Of a stretch of 64,000 nucleotides of DNA, positions 56,981-64,000 are shown piece by piece. The notes under the pieces were generated by a model. That model did not search any database. It was not told the origin of the DNA and worked only from the letters and a program-made list of their open reading frames with translations. The translations under genes and the position numbers were made by a program. The DNA lies in the NCBI GenBank assembly GCA_031409275.1, contig JANNXA010000036.1, forward strand, positions 1 through 64,000. The letters are read 5' to 3'. Position 1 is the stretch's first letter. Each line of letters begins with the position of its first letter. This DNA is from Planctomycetota bacterium (GTDB lineage: Bacteria; Planctomycetota; B15-G4; SIAN01).

Positions 56981-57008
56981 AACCTAGCTCTTGTCAACTC
57001 CCTGTCAA
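56981..57008 (-). promoter_or_regulatory. sigma70 promoter of the HU/IHF gene
   Basis: TTGACA(57008-57003)-16 bp-TAGGTT(56986-56981), with a second TTGACA inside the spacer. Confidence 0.7.
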
Positions 57009-57098
57009 CCAAGCACTTGCGACGAGAATCGCTCGACCCTGCCGCCGCCCGAGCGCAGTCGCTGCCGAGGCTCGATCGCAACCTCGCCCGGAGCTCCA

Positions 57099-57782
57099 TT
57101 GCCTCCGAACGGAGGGCTTTCCGCGACGACCTTTGCAGCGTTCGCGCAAGCGCCCGCCCACCCCTTCAAGACGCATCGAACCGGCGACGTCGCGCAGATC
57201 GCCGCGAGCGCGACACCATGGGGCGTTGCCGCCATCCGCAAGCGCTTCTGGTACCCGCGTGCCAGCGACCGTTGGAACGGCGTCTTTCGCACGACCTTCG
57301 CCGCCCGCTCGCGAGTCGCCGGCGAAGCGGCCGCACTCGAACGGCTGGCGCGACTCGGGCTCCAACCACCGCTTCTGTTGGCCTGGGGCGAGGCGCGCCG
57401 GCACGGCTTCCTCCACGACTCGTTCCTCTACTTGCGCGAGATCGAGTCGGAGTCGCTCGACCACTGGTTCGCGGCGCCGCATGAGCCGGCCGCGCGACTC
57501 GTCACGCTCGCGGCACTCGCCCGCTTCGTCGCTGCGCTCGGTCGCGCGCGAATCGTCGATCGCGATCTCCACCTGCGCAACTTCCTGCGGCGACCCGACG
57601 GAACGCTCTCGAAGATCGATTCGCCCTTCGCAAGGGTCGTCGGCGGCGCGTGGGGACGGCGCGGTCGGGCGCGCGACCTCGCCGACCTCGAGCGTGACCT
57701 CGCCGCCGCGCTCAGCGAAACCGAGTTCGCGGAGTGGCGCCGCGCGCTGTCCCGATCGTGCGAGACCCCGCCGTCCCGCTGA
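57099..57782 (+). CDS. LPS core kinase-like protein (WaaP/KdkA/InaA family); start uncertain
   Basis: IRKRF, SR..GEAAAL.RL, catalytic-loop-like DRDLHLRNFL, KID and RARDLADL motifs. Confidence 0.7.
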   Translation: MPPNGGLSATTFAAFAQAPAHPFKTHRTGDVAQIAASATPWGVAAIRKRFWYPRASDRWNGVFRTTFAARSRVAGEAAALERLARLGLQPPLLLAWGEARRHGFLHDSFLYLREIESESLDHWFAAPHEPAARLVTLAALARFVAALGRARIVDRDLHLRNFLRRPDGTLSKIDSPFARVVGGAWGRRGRARDLADLERDLAAALSETEFAEWRRALSRSCETPPSR

Positions 57783-57800: not shown

Positions 57801-58280
57801 TCAACCGCGGTCGGGGGCCGGCACGGCGGCTGGCAGCAGGACGCTCGTGTCGAGCACGAACGTCGCCGGGCCTTCGTTCACCAGTTCGACCCGCATCGAC
57901 GCGCCGAAGCGGCCGGTTTCGACGGGGACGGCGCGGGCGCGGAGGCGCGCCACGAATTCGTCGAACCAACGGCGGCCCGCCTCGGGCGGCGCCGCGGCGA
58001 TGAAGTCGGGACGGCGACCGCGCGCGAGACCGGCCAGCAGCGTGAACTGCGAGATGGCGAGCACGCCGCCAGCGATCTCGGGCAGCGCAAGGTTCATCTT
58101 CCCGGCGCCATCCTCGAAGACGCGCAACTCGTGGATCCGGCGCGCCAGGTAGTCGGCCTCGCGCTCGCCGTCGCCATGCGCGACTCCGAGCAGGACCACG
58201 AAGCCCCGACCGACGCTCCCGACCAGCTCCGCATCGACATGCACCGTGCCGCGAGCGACCCGCTGCACCACGGCGATCAT
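57801..58280 (-). CDS. dtd: D-aminoacyl-tRNA deacylase
   Basis: AVVQRV, LRVF, GKMNL, SQFTL, GRFGASM and NEGPAT motifs. Confidence 0.96.
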   Translation of the reverse strand: MIAVVQRVARGTVHVDAELVGSVGRGFVVLLGVAHGDGEREADYLARRIHELRVFEDGAGKMNLALPEIAGGVLAISQFTLLAGLARGRRPDFIAAAPPEAGRRWFDEFVARLRARAVPVETGRFGASMRVELVNEGPATFVLDTSVLLPAAVPAPDRG

Positions 58281-59437
58281 TGCCCGATCTCCGGCGGCGC
58301 GTCTTCGAGCGGATCGACCGTTCGCGGCGCCGGCTCGTCGCGTTGCAGCTGCGCCCGCAGTTCGCGCACCTGATTGGGCACGTAGAAGAGCCGGTAGAAG
58401 ACCTGGTCGGCCGGCAGCGGTCGCGTCATGGTCTGCGCGCGCAGCAGATACTCCTCGAAGGCCGCGAGCGCTTGTTCGGGATGGTTGCGCTGCTTCATCT
58501 CGACCACGCCGATGTTGTAGAGCGCGGTGAGGCACTCGCGATCGAGCGCCAGCGAGTGTTCCCACGCCGCGATCGCCTCGCCATCGCGATTGCGGCGGGC
58601 GAAAGCGGTCCCGAGGTCGAGCCACGCGTCGCGTGCCAGCTCGAGTGCTTCGGGAGTCGGCGCTTCGCCGACCGTTGCGAGGATCGCGCGCAGCTGCTTC
58701 TCGGCGGCCGTCGCGTCGCTGCGATCATCGGCCTCGAGCAGCAGCTGCGCGAGCCGATGGCGCTCGAACGGATCGCCGGCCGTGATCTCGACCAGCAGTT
58801 CGCGCGCCTCGATCGCCCGCTCGCGCGTGCCGCCGTCCTGTTCGAGGTCGGCAAGCATCCGCAACGCCTCGATCAGCGACGGGTCACGCGCCAGCGCCTC
58901 GTCGCAGAGCACCCGGGCCCGATCGGCGCGTCCGTCGCGCTGCTCCAGGAAGGCCAGTCCGTACCTGGCAAAGGCGAAGTCATCGTCCTGATCGATCGCG
59001 GCGGTTAGCAGATTGCGCGCCTCGGCCGACCGCTCCGGCAGGAGAGCGCGCGCGGCGAGCAGCTTCTCCGCGGCGGTCGCGACCGGGCCACTCGCGTAGC
59101 GCTCGCGCGCGGCGCGTTCATCGAGCGCGATCTCGAGGTCCTGCACCAGCAAGGCGGCCCGAATCTCCTCGGGCGCCGCCACTTGCGCGAGCCGCGCCGA
59201 GATCAACGCCGATTCGAGCAGCGAACGGCGCTCGACCTCGCCAACCGTCGCCGCGTGTCGCTGGGCCTCGACCGCTCGCGCCATGGCGGCCGCCACTGCC
59301 GGCGCGAACTCGACCGGCTGCGCCCGCAGCCTCGACGCGCAGCCCCCCGACGCGAGCGCCAGCACCACGAGCAGCGGCAGAATCCGCCACGAACCGTGCG
59401 CCGGCGCCGCGAACCTGTCGGCCCCGCCGCGTGTCAC
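58277..59437 (-). CDS. Tetratricopeptide-repeat lipoprotein
   Basis: Signal LPLLVVLALASGGC; TPR-like AFARYGLA, AWLDLGTAF and ALYNIG segments. Confidence 0.8.
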   Translation of the reverse strand: MTRGGADRFAAPAHGSWRILPLLVVLALASGGCASRLRAQPVEFAPAVAAAMARAVEAQRHAATVGEVERRSLLESALISARLAQVAAPEEIRAALLVQDLEIALDERAARERYASGPVATAAEKLLAARALLPERSAEARNLLTAAIDQDDDFAFARYGLAFLEQRDGRADRARVLCDEALARDPSLIEALRMLADLEQDGGTRERAIEARELLVEITAGDPFERHRLAQLLLEADDRSDATAAEKQLRAILATVGEAPTPEALELARDAWLDLGTAFARRNRDGEAIAAWEHSLALDRECLTALYNIGVVEMKQRNHPEQALAAFEEYLLRAQTMTRPLPADQVFYRLFYVPNQVRELRAQLQRDEPAPRTVDPLEDAPPEIGQ

Positions 59438-60450
59438 TTCCGCGGTGCGAGGCCGCGCACGCCGATGCGCGTGCGGACCTCCTCCATCGTCGCCTGCGCG
59501 ATGGCCGCCGCCTTCTTGCGGCCAACTTCGAGCAGATCGTGCAGGTCATCGGGCCGTGCCCGCCACGCCGCTTGTGCTTCGCGAATCGGCGTCAGCTGCT
59601 CGATGACACGATCGGCGAGCTCCTTCTTGCAGTCGACGCATCCGAGCGCGGCGCTGCGGCAGTCGCGCTCGATCGCCTCGACGCGCGCCGGATCGCGCGG
59701 GCCGGTGAAGCAGCCGTGCAACGTAAAGATGTTGCAGATCTCCGGATGGCCCGGATCGTTGCGGCGCAGTCGCGCGGGATCGGTGACGGCGACCTTCAGC
59801 TTGGCGCGGATCGCGTCGGGCGCTTCGCCGATGGCGATGGTGTTGCCCTTCGACTTCGACATCTTCGAGTTGCCGTCGAGCCCCTTCAGTCGCGCCAGCT
59901 TCGAGAGCAGCGGCTGCGGTTCGGGAAAGGTCTCGCCGAAGCGACGGTTGAAGCGGCGCGCGATCTCGCGGGACAGCTCGAGGTGCTGCACCTGGTCCTC
60001 ACCGACGGGGACGCGGTCGGCCTTGTAGAGCAGGATGTCGGCGGCCTGCAGCACCGGGTAGGTGAGGATGCCGGCGTTGAGGTTTTCGCTGTGCTGCGCC
60101 GCCTTGTCCTTGTACTGCGTCATCCGCTCGAGTTCGCCGACCATCGTGCAGCAGATGAAGATCCACCCGAGTTCGGTGTGCTCGGGCACAGCCGACTGGC
60201 GGAAGAGCGTCACCTTCGCCGGGTCGAGGCCGCACGCGAGCAGGCTCGCCGCCATGTCGAGCGAGTTCGAGCGCATCTGGTCGGGCGACAGGTCGATCGA
60301 CAGCGCGTGGTAGTCGACGATGGCGTAGAGCGCGTCGGCGCGATCGGGCGCGGCCTGCTGCTCCACCCATTGGCGGATCGCGCCGAGGTAGTTGCCGAGA
60401 TGGGGTTCGCCGGTCGGTTGGATGCCGCTGAAGATGCGGTGACGTGCCAT
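59434..60450 (-). CDS. trpS: Tryptophan--tRNA ligase
   Basis: FSGIQPTG, HLGN, YPVLQAADIL, VPVGEDQ and KMSKS motifs. Confidence 0.98.
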   Translation of the reverse strand: MARHRIFSGIQPTGEPHLGNYLGAIRQWVEQQAAPDRADALYAIVDYHALSIDLSPDQMRSNSLDMAASLLACGLDPAKVTLFRQSAVPEHTELGWIFICCTMVGELERMTQYKDKAAQHSENLNAGILTYPVLQAADILLYKADRVPVGEDQVQHLELSREIARRFNRRFGETFPEPQPLLSKLARLKGLDGNSKMSKSKGNTIAIGEAPDAIRAKLKVAVTDPARLRRNDPGHPEICNIFTLHGCFTGPRDPARVEAIERDCRSAALGCVDCKKELADRVIEQLTPIREAQAAWRARPDDLHDLLEVGRKKAAAIAQATMEEVRTRIGVRGLAPRK

Positions 60451-60519
60451 GCGATCCCTTTGGTTGCGCCTTGCGGCGCGCGAGCATAACTTCGCCCGCG
60501 TCCGCACGCGGAGGGGAGC

Positions 60520-62046
60520 TTGAGCGGTCGATCGCGCGCGCGCGCCACGAAATCCTCGTCCACCACCATCGCAGCGGCGCTCGTCGCCATGCTGGCGGTA
60601 TCGGGCTGCGCCGGCTCGGACATCGACGCCAACCCGTTCCACGTCGGCCGCACCTACGACACTGGCCACGGCGAAGCGGCGCGCGTGCAGGTGCTTGGCC
60701 CCCTCTGGGACGATTCGATCGAGCCCGATCGGCGCGAGACGGCGCTCCACCCCTTGTGGCGCCGGGTCGAGACGCCGACCGAAGTCCGAACGCAGGTGCT
60801 CGCCCCCCTCTTCGCCAACCGGACGACGGCCGACGAGAGCAGTTCGCGCTTCCTGGCGCTCGCCTTTTCCCGGACCCACCGTTCGAGCAGCACGACCGGC
60901 GACTACGACTTCATGTTCTTTCCGCTGCTGTGGTGGGGAAACGGCGATCGCGCCGCCGAGCGCTACTTCGCCCTGTTCCCGGTCGGTGGCGTCATCGAGA
61001 GCTTCGGCGGCTTCGCGCGGGTCGGCTTCGTCCTCTTCCCGCTCTACTACTGGGCCACCAAGGAGATCACCGAGTCGGAGACGTTCCACAACATCACGCC
61101 GTTCTTCGGCTGGGTCGACGGCGGACCGCGCGACGGCTCTTGGCGCGTGCTGCCACTCGTCGGCCACTGGAAATACGAGGGCAAGTACGACAAGTGGTCG
61201 GTCCTGTGGCCCTTCCTCCACTGGCAGAGGAACCGCCTCGACACGAACGACCCGTCGACCAACTTCGCCTTCTGGCCGCTGTTTGGTCTCGAGCGCAGCA
61301 AGCGAATCCACTTCCTCTCCTTCCTCTGGCCCTTCTTCCGCTTCCGGACCGAGCGCGTCGAGAGTTTCGATGAGGCAAACGTCCGTACCGAGAGCGAGTA
61401 CTGGCGGCGCGACGTCCTGTGGCCGCTGTGGCGCAGCGAACACGAGCGCGACTGGGACTACTTGCGCCTCTTCCCCTTCTTCTCGCGCTACCGCAGCGCG
61501 GAGCTCGACAGCGACGCCTACGCGATCCCGCTGCTGTGGCGCCGCACGACGCGCGAGCGCGATTGGACCAAGCAGACGTTCGACTTCGTCCCGCTCGTCC
61601 ACTGGGAGCGCAAGACCTGGAACACGCCGGCCGCGGGCGGCCCTCCTCGCGCCGACGACACCGCATTCAAGCTGTGGCCGCTCTTCTCCGTCAGCGACGA
61701 GGCGAGCGCGAACGAGGTCAAGGTACCGGCGCTGCTGCCGCTCGACCTCGAGCGCTACACCGGCGACTTCGAGGCGAGCTTCGGTCCGCTCTTCGAGCTC
61801 TGGCACACGCGACGAGCGGCGGACGGCAGCGTCCGCGGCAACGCACTGCTGCGCCTGGTCGACTGGGAATCGCGCGACGGGCGCGACCGATTCTCGATTC
61901 CTCTGCTCTACTCCCTCGACCGCACGCCGACCCGGACCACCCATCGCCTGTTGCTGGGCATGCTTCGCTTCGGCAGCGGCGAGGGCGGCGCGGAGTTCAA
62001 GCTCCTCGGCATGCCGATCCTGACCCCCGAGGTTGCATCCCGGTGA
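60520..62046 (+). CDS. Uncharacterised lipoprotein with about 20 aromatic (L/F)WP(F/L)F-type repeats
   Basis: Lipobox LAVSGC; repeating hydrophobic-Pro-aromatic units; TGA overlaps the mlaE GTG. Start uncertain. Confidence 0.8.
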   Translation: MSGRSRARATKSSSTTIAAALVAMLAVSGCAGSDIDANPFHVGRTYDTGHGEAARVQVLGPLWDDSIEPDRRETALHPLWRRVETPTEVRTQVLAPLFANRTTADESSSRFLALAFSRTHRSSSTTGDYDFMFFPLLWWGNGDRAAERYFALFPVGGVIESFGGFARVGFVLFPLYYWATKEITESETFHNITPFFGWVDGGPRDGSWRVLPLVGHWKYEGKYDKWSVLWPFLHWQRNRLDTNDPSTNFAFWPLFGLERSKRIHFLSFLWPFFRFRTERVESFDEANVRTESEYWRRDVLWPLWRSEHERDWDYLRLFPFFSRYRSAELDSDAYAIPLLWRRTTRERDWTKQTFDFVPLVHWERKTWNTPAAGGPPRADDTAFKLWPLFSVSDEASANEVKVPALLPLDLERYTGDFEASFGPLFELWHTRRAADGSVRGNALLRLVDWESRDGRDRFSIPLLYSLDRTPTRTTHRLLLGMLRFGSGEGGAEFKLLGMPILTPEVASR

Positions 62047-62840
62047 TCCGCTTCTTCTCGTTCCTCGGCCGCACGATCGAAGAGGCGGTGCAAGGCACCG
62101 GCAAAACGGTCGAACTGCTGATCGTGGCGTCGCTCTACGTGAGGCACGCCTGGAAGCGCCGCCGCTTCCTGCTCGAGCAGCTCTACACCTGCGGCATTCG
62201 TCCTCTGCCGGTCGTCCTTGTCGTCGCCCTCTTCACCGGGATGATCCTCGCGCTGCAGACGGGCATCGAGCTCGACCGCTTCGGTGCCAAGGACCGGATC
62301 GCCTCGATCATCGGGCTCGGGCTGTGTCGCGAGATGGGCCCGTTCATGACGGCGCTGATCCTGACCGCGAGCGTCGGGTCGGGCATCGCCGCCGAGATCG
62401 CCACGATGAAGGTCTCGGAGGAGATCGACGCCCTCGAGATCATGTCGATCCGACCCGAGTCGTTCCTGGTGATGCCGCGCCTCATCGCCATGGCGATCGC
62501 GACCCCGGTGCTGACGTTCGTCACTGACACGGTCGGCGTCCTCGGCGGCTGCCTCGTCGGCGCCACGCGGCTACGCATCGCGCCCGAGCTCTTTCTGAAG
62601 CACGTGGTCGAATCGCTGTCGCAGGACTTGACGATCTTCGGCTTGCCCAAGGACCTCTACACGGGGCTCGCCAAGGCCTTCGTCTTCGGGATCATCATCG
62701 CGGTGGTCGGCAGCGCGACGGGCCTGCGCGCCACCGGTGGCGCCATCGGGGTCGGCCGCGCCACTCGTAGCGCCGTCATCCAGAGCTTCGTCCTCATCAT
62801 CGTGGTCGGGTACTACCTGACTTCGCTCTTCTACTCGTGA
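62043..62840 (+). CDS. mlaE: MlaE-family ABC permease
   Basis: FTGMILALQ, REMGP, GSGIAAEIATMKVSEEIDALE, PRL and GVGRAT motifs. Confidence 0.94.
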   Translation: MIRFFSFLGRTIEEAVQGTGKTVELLIVASLYVRHAWKRRRFLLEQLYTCGIRPLPVVLVVALFTGMILALQTGIELDRFGAKDRIASIIGLGLCREMGPFMTALILTASVGSGIAAEIATMKVSEEIDALEIMSIRPESFLVMPRLIAMAIATPVLTFVTDTVGVLGGCLVGATRLRIAPELFLKHVVESLSQDLTIFGLPKDLYTGLAKAFVFGIIIAVVGSATGLRATGGAIGVGRATRSAVIQSFVLIIVVGYYLTSLFYS

Positions 62841-63655
62841 GCGCGCGCGTGGAACCTCCGTCCGAAGCTGCTGCTCCCCCTGCCTCGGCTGGCACCGACG
62901 AGGTGCTGATCCGCATGGTGGACGTGCACAAGGCGTTCGGACGCAAGCAGGTGCTGCGCGGGATCAACCTCGATGTGCGGCGCGGCGAGACCTTCGTCAT
63001 CCTCGGCCCATCGGGCACCGGCAAGTCGTGCCTGCTCAAGCTGCTGGTCGGGCTGCTCGAGCCGGATGCTGGCGAAGTATGGGTCGGCAAGGAGCGCGTC
63101 GACCACGCCACGCACCGCGTCCTCTGGGAGGTGCGCGGCCGCATCGGCTACCTGTTCCAGTCGAGCGCGCTGATCAACTGGCTCTCGGTCGCCGAGAACG
63201 TCGCCCTTCCGCTCGCGGAGCACACGCGACTGCGCCGGCACGAGATCGATCGGCGCGTGGACGAGTACCTCTCGAAGGTCCACATGCTGCAGTCGAAGTA
63301 CCAGATGCCAGCCGAACTCTCGGGCGGGCAGAAGCGCCGCGTCGCGCTGGCGCGCGTGCTGGCGGGGGCGCCGACCATCATCCTTTACGACGAACCCACC
63401 GCCGGACTCGATCCGGTGATGACGGCGAACATCGCCGCCCTGATCCGCAGCGTGCAGCGCGAGTTCGGCGTCACCTCGATCCTCGTCACCCATGACCTGC
63501 CATGCGCGTGGGAGGCCGGCGATCGCGTCGCCTTCGTCGATGGCGGCACGGTCGTCCACTGCGACTCGACGCAACGGTTCCAGCACAGCAGCCATCCGGC
63601 GCTGCGCAACTTCCTGAGCGGCGGCCGTACCCCCGCATCCGGAGCTCCGCGATGA
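62837..63655 (+). CDS. mlaF: MlaF-family ABC ATPase
   Basis: GPSGTGKS, LFQSSAL, LSGGQ, YDEPTAGLDP and VTHD motifs. Confidence 0.92.
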   Translation: MSARVEPPSEAAAPPASAGTDEVLIRMVDVHKAFGRKQVLRGINLDVRRGETFVILGPSGTGKSCLLKLLVGLLEPDAGEVWVGKERVDHATHRVLWEVRGRIGYLFQSSALINWLSVAENVALPLAEHTRLRRHEIDRRVDEYLSKVHMLQSKYQMPAELSGGQKRRVALARVLAGAPTIILYDEPTAGLDPVMTANIAALIRSVQREFGVTSILVTHDLPCAWEAGDRVAFVDGGTVVHCDSTQRFQHSSHPALRNFLSGGRTPASGAPR

Positions 63656-64000
63656 ACGCGATCCGCCACACGATCCTCGGCCTCTTCTTCTTCGTGACGC
63701 TCGTCGCGCTCGGCTTCATGACGATCTACCTCGGCGACGTCACGACGACCGCGCAGCGCACCACGCTCATCGCCTACTTCGCCAACGTCGAAGGACTTGG
63801 CGCCGGCGATCCGGTGATGGTCTACGGCGTGCAGAGCGGCCGCGTGATCAAGGTCGAGTTCACTCCCGGCAACCCGCCACCGGAACGGCGGCTTCGCGTC
63901 ACCTTCGTGGTCGACGTCCCGGTCGAGCTCAAAGAGGACTACGCCATCGCGATCGGCAGCCCGTCGCTGCTCGGCGGCAAGCAACTCGACCTGATGGCGG
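63652..64000 (+). CDS. mlaD: MlaD/MCE-domain protein (partial, runs off the window)
   Basis: Manual translation: MNAIRHTILGLFFFVTLVALGFMTI...FANVEGLGAGDPVMVYGVQSGRV...SLLGGKQLDL. Confidence 0.88.
   Translation, partial: MNAIRHTILGLFFFVTLVALGFMTIYLGDVTTTAQRTTLIAYFANVEGLGAGDPVMVYGVQSGRVIKVEFTPGNPPPERRLRVTFVVDVPVELKEDYAIAIGSPSLLGGKQLDLMA

Follow-up and report, generated by a model that had tools for sequence, protein, structure and literature searches.

The product of gene X, encoded directly ahead of mlaE, mlaF and mlaD in a planctomycetote genome (assembly GCA_031409275.1), belongs to a sizeable family of exported repeat proteins that has no name and whose distribution is complementary to that of the MlaD-fused barrel and to that of MlaA. 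This complementarity with other outer-membrane ends is what is new in the present analysis. As X is linked to MlaE-MlaF-MlaD in three phyla and rarely occurs with other outer-membrane ends, it is likely to be a new outer-membrane end piece. Specifically, we consider it fairly probable that X caps the far end of the long MlaD needle at the outer membrane, its greasy edge dipping into one leaflet. How MCE transporters take lipids from the outer membrane, or put lipids into it, is an open question. No published description of the X family was found in a literature search in which the Geobacter GSU/Gmet locus tags were guessed.

Gene X and its operon

The window, a 64,000-nucleotide stretch of contig JANNXA010000036.1, carries gene X at 60520..62046 on the forward strand. 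Its open reading frame, AlphaFold2 (AF2) model, synteny and distribution make the 508-residue product a candidate outer-membrane-side partner of MlaD. The start codon is TTG, preceded at 5 nt by a Shine-Dalgarno-like GGAGG (60510..60514, +), and the start call is supported by the N-terminus that close homologs share. The predicted signal peptide (60520..60609, +; pattern and hydropathy) ends in the lipobox V-S-G-C30, the predicted lipidation site. The earlier note had described a lipoprotein, which by this pattern holds for X itself but not as a family trait. Relatives of X number 626 after clustering at 50%. A loose lipobox pattern was matched by 15 of the 22 close relatives, by 59 of the 104 distant ones and by 3 of the 109 mostly Geobacter ones; over the whole family, 95 of 319 members match. 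The lack of a lipobox in most Geobacter members argues against an outer-membrane cap.

The open reading frame of X ends in an overlap with mlaE (62043..62840, +), which encodes the permease (Pfam PF02405, 1.9e-66). The mlaF gene for the ABC ATPase follows (62837..63655, +; PF00005 (ABC_tran), 1.3e-34) and then mlaD (63652..64000, +), of which the first 116 of 390 codons lie in the window and which ends at position 64824 of the contig (PF02470, 2.8e-13). All three stop/start overlaps reported previously are real: GTGA at 62043-62046 (X/mlaE), GTGA at 62837-62840 (mlaE/mlaF) and ATGA at 63652-63655 (mlaF/mlaD). With MlaE, MlaF and an MCE-domain MlaD encoded together, the operon specifies an MCE/Mla ABC transporter. 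The four-gene unit is bounded upstream by a divergent gene outside it (59434..60450, −), which we take from its translated sequence to be tryptophanyl-tRNA synthetase-like. At the other end, mlaD is the last gene of the operon: beyond position 64000, in the part read by eye, the next recognizable genes lie on the opposite strand, and no mlaA or mlaC was found there.

The missing MlaA and MlaC, first remarked on for the visible part of the operon, are a feature of the whole source genome (92.9% complete), in which neither PF04333 (MlaA) nor PF05494 (MlaC) had a match; the controls for these searches were positive in E. coli and Caulobacter. Similarly, the profile of the fused MlaD barrel found nothing in this genome. 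The source MlaD, of 390 residues, comprises a transmembrane helix, an MCE domain, long helical repeats after which it ends without a barrel, and a conserved C-terminal amphipathic tail, which is also the end of other X-linked MlaD proteins.

Repeat and predicted fold of X

X contains 20 Pro-centered motifs, or 23 hairpin tips if non-Pro variants are included, at a median spacing of 19 residues. A stricter motif pattern occurred 15 times, whereas 2000 shuffled sequences had 0.38 occurrences on average and never more than 3. The roughly 20 short hydrophobic-Pro-aromatic units claimed for the protein are confirmed. The turns read hydrophobic-(W/F)-Pro-hydrophobic-aromatic. Across 586 sequences, positions −2, −1, +1 and +2 around the turn Pro were 75-92% hydrophobic, and positions at least 5 residues from it were 31-48% charged. 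Based on this tip profile and the AF2 model, the row of turns is the sole conserved greasy part of X.

The AF2 model (pLDDT 94.3, pTM 0.84) is an all-β, single-layer ribbon of about 22-23 β-hairpins, with strands mostly of 5-7 residues whose far halves are charged. X is therefore predicted to be a single-layer, curved β-meander with one greasy edge, in agreement with the repetitive β-hairpin sheet with greasy tips that had been proposed from the sequence.

Searches of X against Pfam (E up to 1) and NCBIfam returned no family, PDB sequences gave no match to a 117-row X profile, and no X was found among plasmids. Foldseek with the X model gave no real match (best TM by query, 0.20). The ESM Atlas returned unannotated clusters only, with TM values of 0.86-0.92 among the Atlas models; the automatic Atlas name 'GWxTD domain-containing' was dropped as it had no Pfam support. 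The best structural matches of the model were open single-layer sheets, CPAP TCP10 (Z 11.5) and MORN1 (Z 10.2). More broadly, CPAP/SAS-4 TCP10, MORN repeats (Morn1, junctophilin-2), OspA and the ApoB100 belt form, like X, an open antiparallel ribbon (Z 8-11.5), in partial matches of 5-8 Å rmsd over at most about 230 of the 508 residues and at most 10% identity. The structural alignments gave no evidence of common descent with these single-layer β-meander proteins.

These comparisons bear on whether X might instead form a closed barrel or pore that spans the outer membrane, as a single chain or in an oligomer, such that lipids or hydrophobic nutrients would cross the whole membrane. Porins and TonB-dependent barrels gave weak alignments to residues about 160-385 (Z 5.5-6.6, rmsd 4-7 Å), and the pTM of X, together with the TM values among the Atlas models, suggests a defined global shape. 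Moreover, many members lack a lipobox, and X alternates with a real barrel (see below). Nevertheless, we regard closure as unlikely: barrel proteins matched the model at Z 7.3 or less, its closest matches being open sheets, and the modeled strands are short for a bilayer, charged in their far halves and hydrophobic at their tips only. Within X, adjacent tips covaried (e.g., F195-V210 and L233-F251), but no long-range closing contacts or ring-closure signal were seen (effective depth 411), and the C-terminal residue of the family is variable.

The elongated ribbon, and an alignment with ApoB100 of Z 9.5 and 5.1 Å rmsd over 232 residues, would also suit a periplasmic lipid bridge or carrier replacing MlaC, a curled ribbon with a hydrophobic groove like the AsmA/TamB-type or ApoB β-belt. 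We find this very improbable, as the hydrophobicity of X lies along one edge, in the turns, rather than along one face of the sheet, and its partner MlaD is already of the long needle type.

Genomic linkage and complementary distribution

Of the genomes sampled, 134 of 301 from Planctomycetota and 46 of 121 from Desulfobacterota encoded X, which was also found in Verrucomicrobiota. The linkage to an MCE operon on which the earlier note was built recurs among the homologs and is tight with mlaE or mlaD in all three phyla. Thus, X relatives flanked mlaE or mlaD in 66 of 70 Planctomycetota loci: in 27 of the 30 best loci and 38 of the 40 spread ones X sits immediately upstream of mlaE, and one more is arranged mlaF-mlaD-X. 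The same upstream position was found in 69 of 80 Geobacterales loci and in 73 of 80 Opitutales-like loci, the other seven of which had no downstream DNA. In the wider Desulfobacterota, X adjoined mlaE (7) or mlaD (18) in 25 of 30 loci. No other neighbor was conserved across the X groups in the fetched loci. The Geobacter metallireducens ortholog, WP_004512097.1, makes the role of X directly testable.

Several observations concern fusions and other neighbors. An apparent MlaD-X fusion (L329, 855 residues) was an artefact in which an N-gap spans the junction, and no such fusion was found among 29 longer hits (1057-3015 residues only). In one species cluster, a single ORF encodes both an HpnN-like transporter and X, and Geobacter X loci have CruF-like and HpnG-like neighbors that score below the cut-off. 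A general hopanoid link was dropped, there being no HpnN match in any fetched locus or in the source genome.

Orphan X genes made up 3 of 30 (family f47), 8 of 80 Geobacterales and 5 of 30 Desulfobacterota loci (within 1.5 kb). Longer proteins carrying the X repeat (530-1470 residues) sit away from MCE genes, so the repeat is not MCE-specific. Both facts could be accommodated if X were an envelope protein merely co-regulated with mlaEFD and had no physical part in transport. We give this almost no credence, since the linkage survives changes of gene order in three phyla and the presence of X goes along with one type of MlaD tail, also where the genes are unlinked. Specifically, X is unlinked in f47 and in genome G302, yet an X-type MlaD with the tail is still encoded in the genome. 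Among the best 150 matches of an MlaD-tail search, all 118 genomes with a match reaching the tail have X, a count that is partly circular.

A second long MlaD has a 10-stranded C-terminal domain predicted to be a barrel (AF2 pLDDT 89.5), for which the top Foldseek matches were mostly transmembrane barrels at E 5e-4 or weaker. The profile of this fused barrel matched 50 of 301 Planctomycetota genomes. X and the fused barrel occurred together in 2 of the 301, as compared to 22.3 expected (2 of 48 X families), and in none of the 121 Desulfobacterota genomes, for which 9.5 were expected. Similarly, none of 29 barrel-type MlaD loci contained X. Among the Desulfobacterota, X was found in 46 genomes, the barrel in 25 and MlaA in 50; 112 of the 121 genomes had at least one of the three and 103 had exactly one. 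Of the anticipated anti-correlation with mlaA/mlaC, that with MlaA was clear in this phylum, in which X and MlaA shared 4 of 121 genomes versus 19 expected, but was weak in Planctomycetota, where 11 of 33 MlaA genomes have X. With MlaA and MlaC together, X was barely anti-correlated in Planctomycetota: 5 of 21 genomes with both have X (about 9 expected).

A quick MlaE tree of 99 rows contained six barrel/X changes, three of them forced, suggesting several independent switches. These were not upheld in a reduced tree of 62 rows, from which most of the outgroup had been removed, together with 16 near-duplicates and 4 rows on long branches: a single barrel-type clade was not rejected (p-AU 0.41). 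The exclusivity of X and barrel may thus reflect few evolutionary events.

The same data bear on the idea that X is a collar or assembly scaffold for MlaE/MlaD on the inner-membrane side, its greasy edge resting on that membrane's periplasmic face. In most loci X runs into the start of mlaE or directly adjoins it, and Lol transport would be unnecessary for its non-lipidated members. Furthermore, in five Geobacterales loci X is kept with mlaE with no mlaD after it, which an inner-membrane partner fits equally well. However, a collar leaves unexplained the alternation of X with two outer-membrane parts, the fused barrel and MlaA; closely related MlaE proteins do without X in barrel-type systems; and in 18 of the 30 wider Desulfobacterota loci X comes after mlaD and not before mlaE. 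We judge a collar quite unlikely.

Proposed role and comparison with known systems

X is inherited together with an MlaE-MlaF-MlaD lipid transporter of the long-needle kind. As an outer-membrane cap, it would be located at the outer membrane and would contact the C-terminal helix of MlaD. Its greasy turns, with 3-5 hydrophobic residues per strand, would enter about one leaflet deep, and X would pass lipids, putatively glycerophospholipids, to or from the MlaD needle. MCE needles are described as binding their outer-membrane partner through a C-terminal peptide (PMC13631591). When X was paired with the MlaD tail (97 pairs), the covariation signal between the two proteins did not rise above controls (top z 8.4 versus 7.0-8.1).

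The part that X replaces appears to be the outer-membrane end of the long MlaD needle, either the fused barrel of a Veillonella-type MlaD or MlaA. Of the earlier proposal that X stands in for MlaA/MlaC, the outer-membrane half is retained. The MlaC half probably falls away: the source MlaD is a 390-residue helical needle type, with which a soluble MlaC-like shuttle is likely to be dispensable. We tentatively suggest that X could represent a new class of MCE outer-membrane terminus, in which a single polypeptide wraps about 22 greasy hairpin tips around the end of the MlaD hexamer, thins or confines one leaflet and extracts or delivers lipid without a pore. Such a terminus would be evolutionarily interchangeable with the fused barrel and MlaA, and longer LA_1737-like relatives would form a wider, unrecognized family of edge-inserting membrane ribbons.

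The outer-membrane partners named in PMC13631591 are confined to porin-like barrels and to MlaA-like and PqiC-like proteins, and PMC10665443 offers no explanation for the outer end of most long barrel-less MlaD needles. The X family is a specific candidate for that end, with a fold unlike those of the porin-like, MlaA-like and PqiC-like partners.

Long X-profile proteins match the C-terminal domain of the Leptospira LA_1737 family (NCBIfam NF047486; two of nine over the cut-off), so the repeat is probably shared with that family, for which a literature search found no paper. Members of X length fall short of it (one hit among 12, at E 0.057; best 13.4 bits, cut-off 60 bits), X itself had no hit, and the long X-repeat proteins examined were not beside MCE genes.

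The source genome does not encode the E. coli-type MlaFEDB-MlaC-MlaA system, as it has no MlaA or MlaC and its MlaD has 390 residues versus about 183. MlaA (VacJ, PF04333) is the outer-membrane part of that system; in Desulfobacterota the two are nearly exclusive, MlaA and X having 4 of 121 genomes in common. MlaA is α-helical, is seated on OmpC/F and passes lipid on to MlaC, whereas X is all-β, goes with a needle MlaD, and showed neither a PF04333 match nor an α-helical fold.

PqiC has roughly 200 residues and an α/β fold. Like X, E. coli PqiC and P. aeruginosa PA3214 (PMC13631591) and Brucella MpcA (PMC12436622) are described as exported partners encoded with a needle-type MCE protein, and the needles of PqiC-type systems, as here, are described as ending in a conserved C-terminal peptide. 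PqiC is depicted as an octameric ring, whereas X is one all-β repeat chain, often non-lipidated. Neither Pfam (E up to 1) nor the 117-row profile against PDB sequences placed X in the PqiC-like family, and the PqiC fold was not listed in the fold searches with X, whose monomer model is all-β.

A close counterpart is the Veillonella parvula-type transenvelope MlaEFD, described in PMC10665443 as having, like the source operon, MlaE-MlaF-MlaD with a long helical MlaD and no MlaA or MlaC. According to the same description, most long MlaD proteins carry no barrel, and room is left for 'as yet unidentified proteins'. The source genome shares the long helical MlaD and the lack of both MlaA and MlaC but not the fused C-terminal barrel. 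In its place is a separate hairpin-repeat protein of ~500 residues, X, and hardly any genome has both arrangements.

X, its operon, and its family

The 508-aa hairpin-repeat protein, X, is encoded at 60520-62046 (+) by the first gene of an X-mlaE-mlaF-mlaD unit, an MCE/Mla ABC system with a long MlaD of the helical-needle type. The open reading frame carries a lipobox signal and its stop overlaps the mlaE start (GTGA), as proposed in the earlier note; the overlaps claimed for mlaE, mlaF, and mlaD proved to be of the same kind. The proposed repeat was likewise recovered: X contained 15 strict matches to the short hydrophobic-Pro-aromatic unit, versus at most 3 in any of 2000 shuffles, and had 23 tips, spaced by a median of 19 aa. 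The observation of X is real. MlaD extends past position 64000, outside the window, to a full length of 390 aa, and the unit stops there. MlaA and MlaC, noted as missing from the visible operon, were found nowhere in the genome.

Near the operon, a TPR-like lipoprotein candidate (58277-59437, -) and a small kinase-like ORF (56991-57782, +) were labeled from their translations only. The only other MlaD of the genome is encoded in a separate operon on another contig (G000:C27:135315-138891, outside the window), together with an N-terminally extended MlaE and a lipoprotein labeled by eye as PqiC-like.

X had no match in Pfam, NCBIfam, or PDB sequences. Its relatives numbered 626 among 50%-identity representatives, and a profile for distant members matched 1267 of 7993 candidate proteins. 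Close homologues were annotated as Planctomycetota proteins; named normal-length members, 'hypothetical' or 'uncharacterized' throughout, came from Planctomycetota, Desulfobacterota, Verrucomicrobiota, and Tectomicrobia. Nearly all invariant columns of the family alignment were turn prolines. The repeat also occurs in longer proteins of 530-1470 aa (loci L158:3988-7044 and L250:809-2407; proteins P0379-P0405) related to the Leptospira LA_1737 family, with no MCE genes seen beside them at the two loci read. In one 90% cluster (P0378, P0407, P0408), a single reading frame joins an HpnN-like RND transporter to a whole X that retains a signal-like segment; it arose either when a stop codon was lost or by recent fusion.

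Linkage of X to mlaE and mlaD

The suggested neighborhood linkage was evident in three phyla. Specifically, mlaE lay directly downstream of X in 27/30 top-ranked Planctomycetota loci, in 38/40 further loci spread down the ranking, in 69/80 Geobacterales loci (3 were too short and 8 lacked mlaE), and in 73/80 metagenome loci fetched by an Opitutaceae-centered alignment, the other 7 having no downstream DNA. Among the best 30 loci of a phylum-wide Desulfobacterota sample, the arrangement was X-mlaE in 7 and mlaD-X in 18, and 5 had no MCE gene within 1.5 kb of X. No further neighbor recurred from one group to another. The Planctomycetota exceptions comprised one mlaF-mlaD-X order, one 1018-aa paralogue, and three loci of one family in which X adjoins unrelated genes. 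In that family (L014, L019, L028, L248, L249) the operon is split, with X beside a gene labeled by eye as phosphoesterase-like and mlaF-mlaD elsewhere without an adjacent mlaE.

The Geobacterales units (L031-L110) are ordered leuC-leuD-X-mlaE-mlaD, and mlaF was found in 0/80 at a 38% identity threshold. Each of the two Geobacterales genomes checked also has another MCE operon, whose MlaD ends in a different tail; mlaF was seen in one of these operons (L310), and the X units may share its ATPase. Two genes near mlaD scored under their curated cut-offs: a CruF-like membrane protein in 58/80 loci (e.g., L095:10424-11317) and an HpnG/MTA-nucleosidase-like gene in 29/80 (e.g., L036:5978-6748).

X-linked MlaD is long, with GxGxLGKL-type helical repeats, and ends in a conserved Pro-capped amphipathic segment, mostly with a terminal Phe. 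Genomes with unlinked X have the same tail type. Among the best 150 of 688 rows matched by an MlaD-tail profile, all 118 genomes whose match reached the tail have X, a count that is partly circular because the profile derives from X-linked MlaD. Covariation between X and MlaD did not rise above the control. We hold with high confidence that X belongs to the MlaE-MlaF-MlaD transporter.

Complementary distribution of X, a fused barrel, and MlaA

In some Planctomycetota without X, a related long MlaD carries an additional domain at its C terminus, predicted as ten long strands and a terminal helix (pLDDT 89.5), for which the best Foldseek rows were mostly transmembrane barrels. Across 301 Planctomycetota genomes, X orthologues (E 1e-50 or better, leaving out 24 weaker hits) occurred in 134 and barrel MlaD in 50 (e.g., L241:5132-6496 and L274:1501-2139), with both in 2 versus 22.3 expected; 119 had neither. 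Counted by family, X occurred in 48, barrel MlaD in 24, and both in 2. X was present in 0/29 barrel MlaD loci. Separately, barrel-type MlaD occurred in 13 of the 24 genomes with only such weak hits, to longer-repeat proteins.

Of 121 Desulfobacterota genomes, 46 had X, 25 had barrel MlaD, and 50 had MlaA; X and the barrel coincided in none, versus 9.5 expected. All 12 barrel hits checked lay inside MlaD proteins. At least one of the three was present in 112 genomes, and exactly one in 103. The anticorrelation of X with MlaA/MlaC raised by the earlier note held for MlaA in Desulfobacterota (X with MlaA in 4/121 versus 19 expected) but was weak in Planctomycetota (X in 11/33 genomes with MlaA and 6/23 with MlaC). 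In all of these counts, related genomes are not independent and many genomes are incomplete, the Desulfobacterota sample being without stated completeness. X-type and barrel-type sequences were intermixed in an MlaE tree of 99 rows; in a 62-row test, a single barrel clade was not rejected (p-AU 0.41). The complementary distribution of X, fused barrel, and MlaA is a new result.

Predicted structure, mechanism, and known systems

AlphaFold2 modeled X from 117 sequences with a pLDDT of 94.3 and pTM of 0.84, as a signal helix followed by over 40 short strands and a single short helix, with every conserved proline in a turn. At the four positions nearest the turn Pro, residues in 586 sequences were 75-92% hydrophobic; those at least 5 away were 31-48% charged. 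Covariation within X recovered pairs between neighboring strands and from tip to tip; it gave no closing contacts. The nearest solved folds were open single-layer sheets (CPAP TCP10, Z 11.5, rmsd 7.8; MORN1, Z 10.2; ApoB100, Z 9.5), while barrels reached Z 7.3 at most. A Foldseek search gave no match above TM 0.20; Atlas models of homologues agreed with one another at TM 0.86-0.92. The meander topology and profile suggest a single greasy edge that would reach a depth of about one leaflet.

On the simplest reading, MCE needles would need an outer-membrane end, for which X would be one of several interchangeable solutions. In PA3213-PA3214 and PqiB-PqiC, according to PMC13631591, a C-terminal needle peptide binds a groove on the partner; by analogy, X would be the docking site for the conserved tail of MlaD. 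The hydrophobic turns of X would insert into the outer membrane's periplasmic leaflet, easing lipid exchange with the tunnel. We infer location, binding, cargo, and direction alike. That X acts at the outer-membrane end of the transporter is likely; the full one-leaflet cap model is the account we lean toward.

X is not MlaA, is not a PqiC-family sequence, and does not reach the cut-off of the LA_1737 family (NF047486). No description of the X family was found in literature coverage mostly without subscription papers. The extra MlaD domain of Planctomycetota resembles the Veillonella parvula MlaD barrel, as described in PMC10665443. That study reports the barrel as absent from PVC MlaD in a 1083-genome sample, and its supplements, which list MlaD types by genome, may bear on barrel distribution. 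The predicted barrel MlaD in 50 of 301 Planctomycetota genomes extends the range given there.
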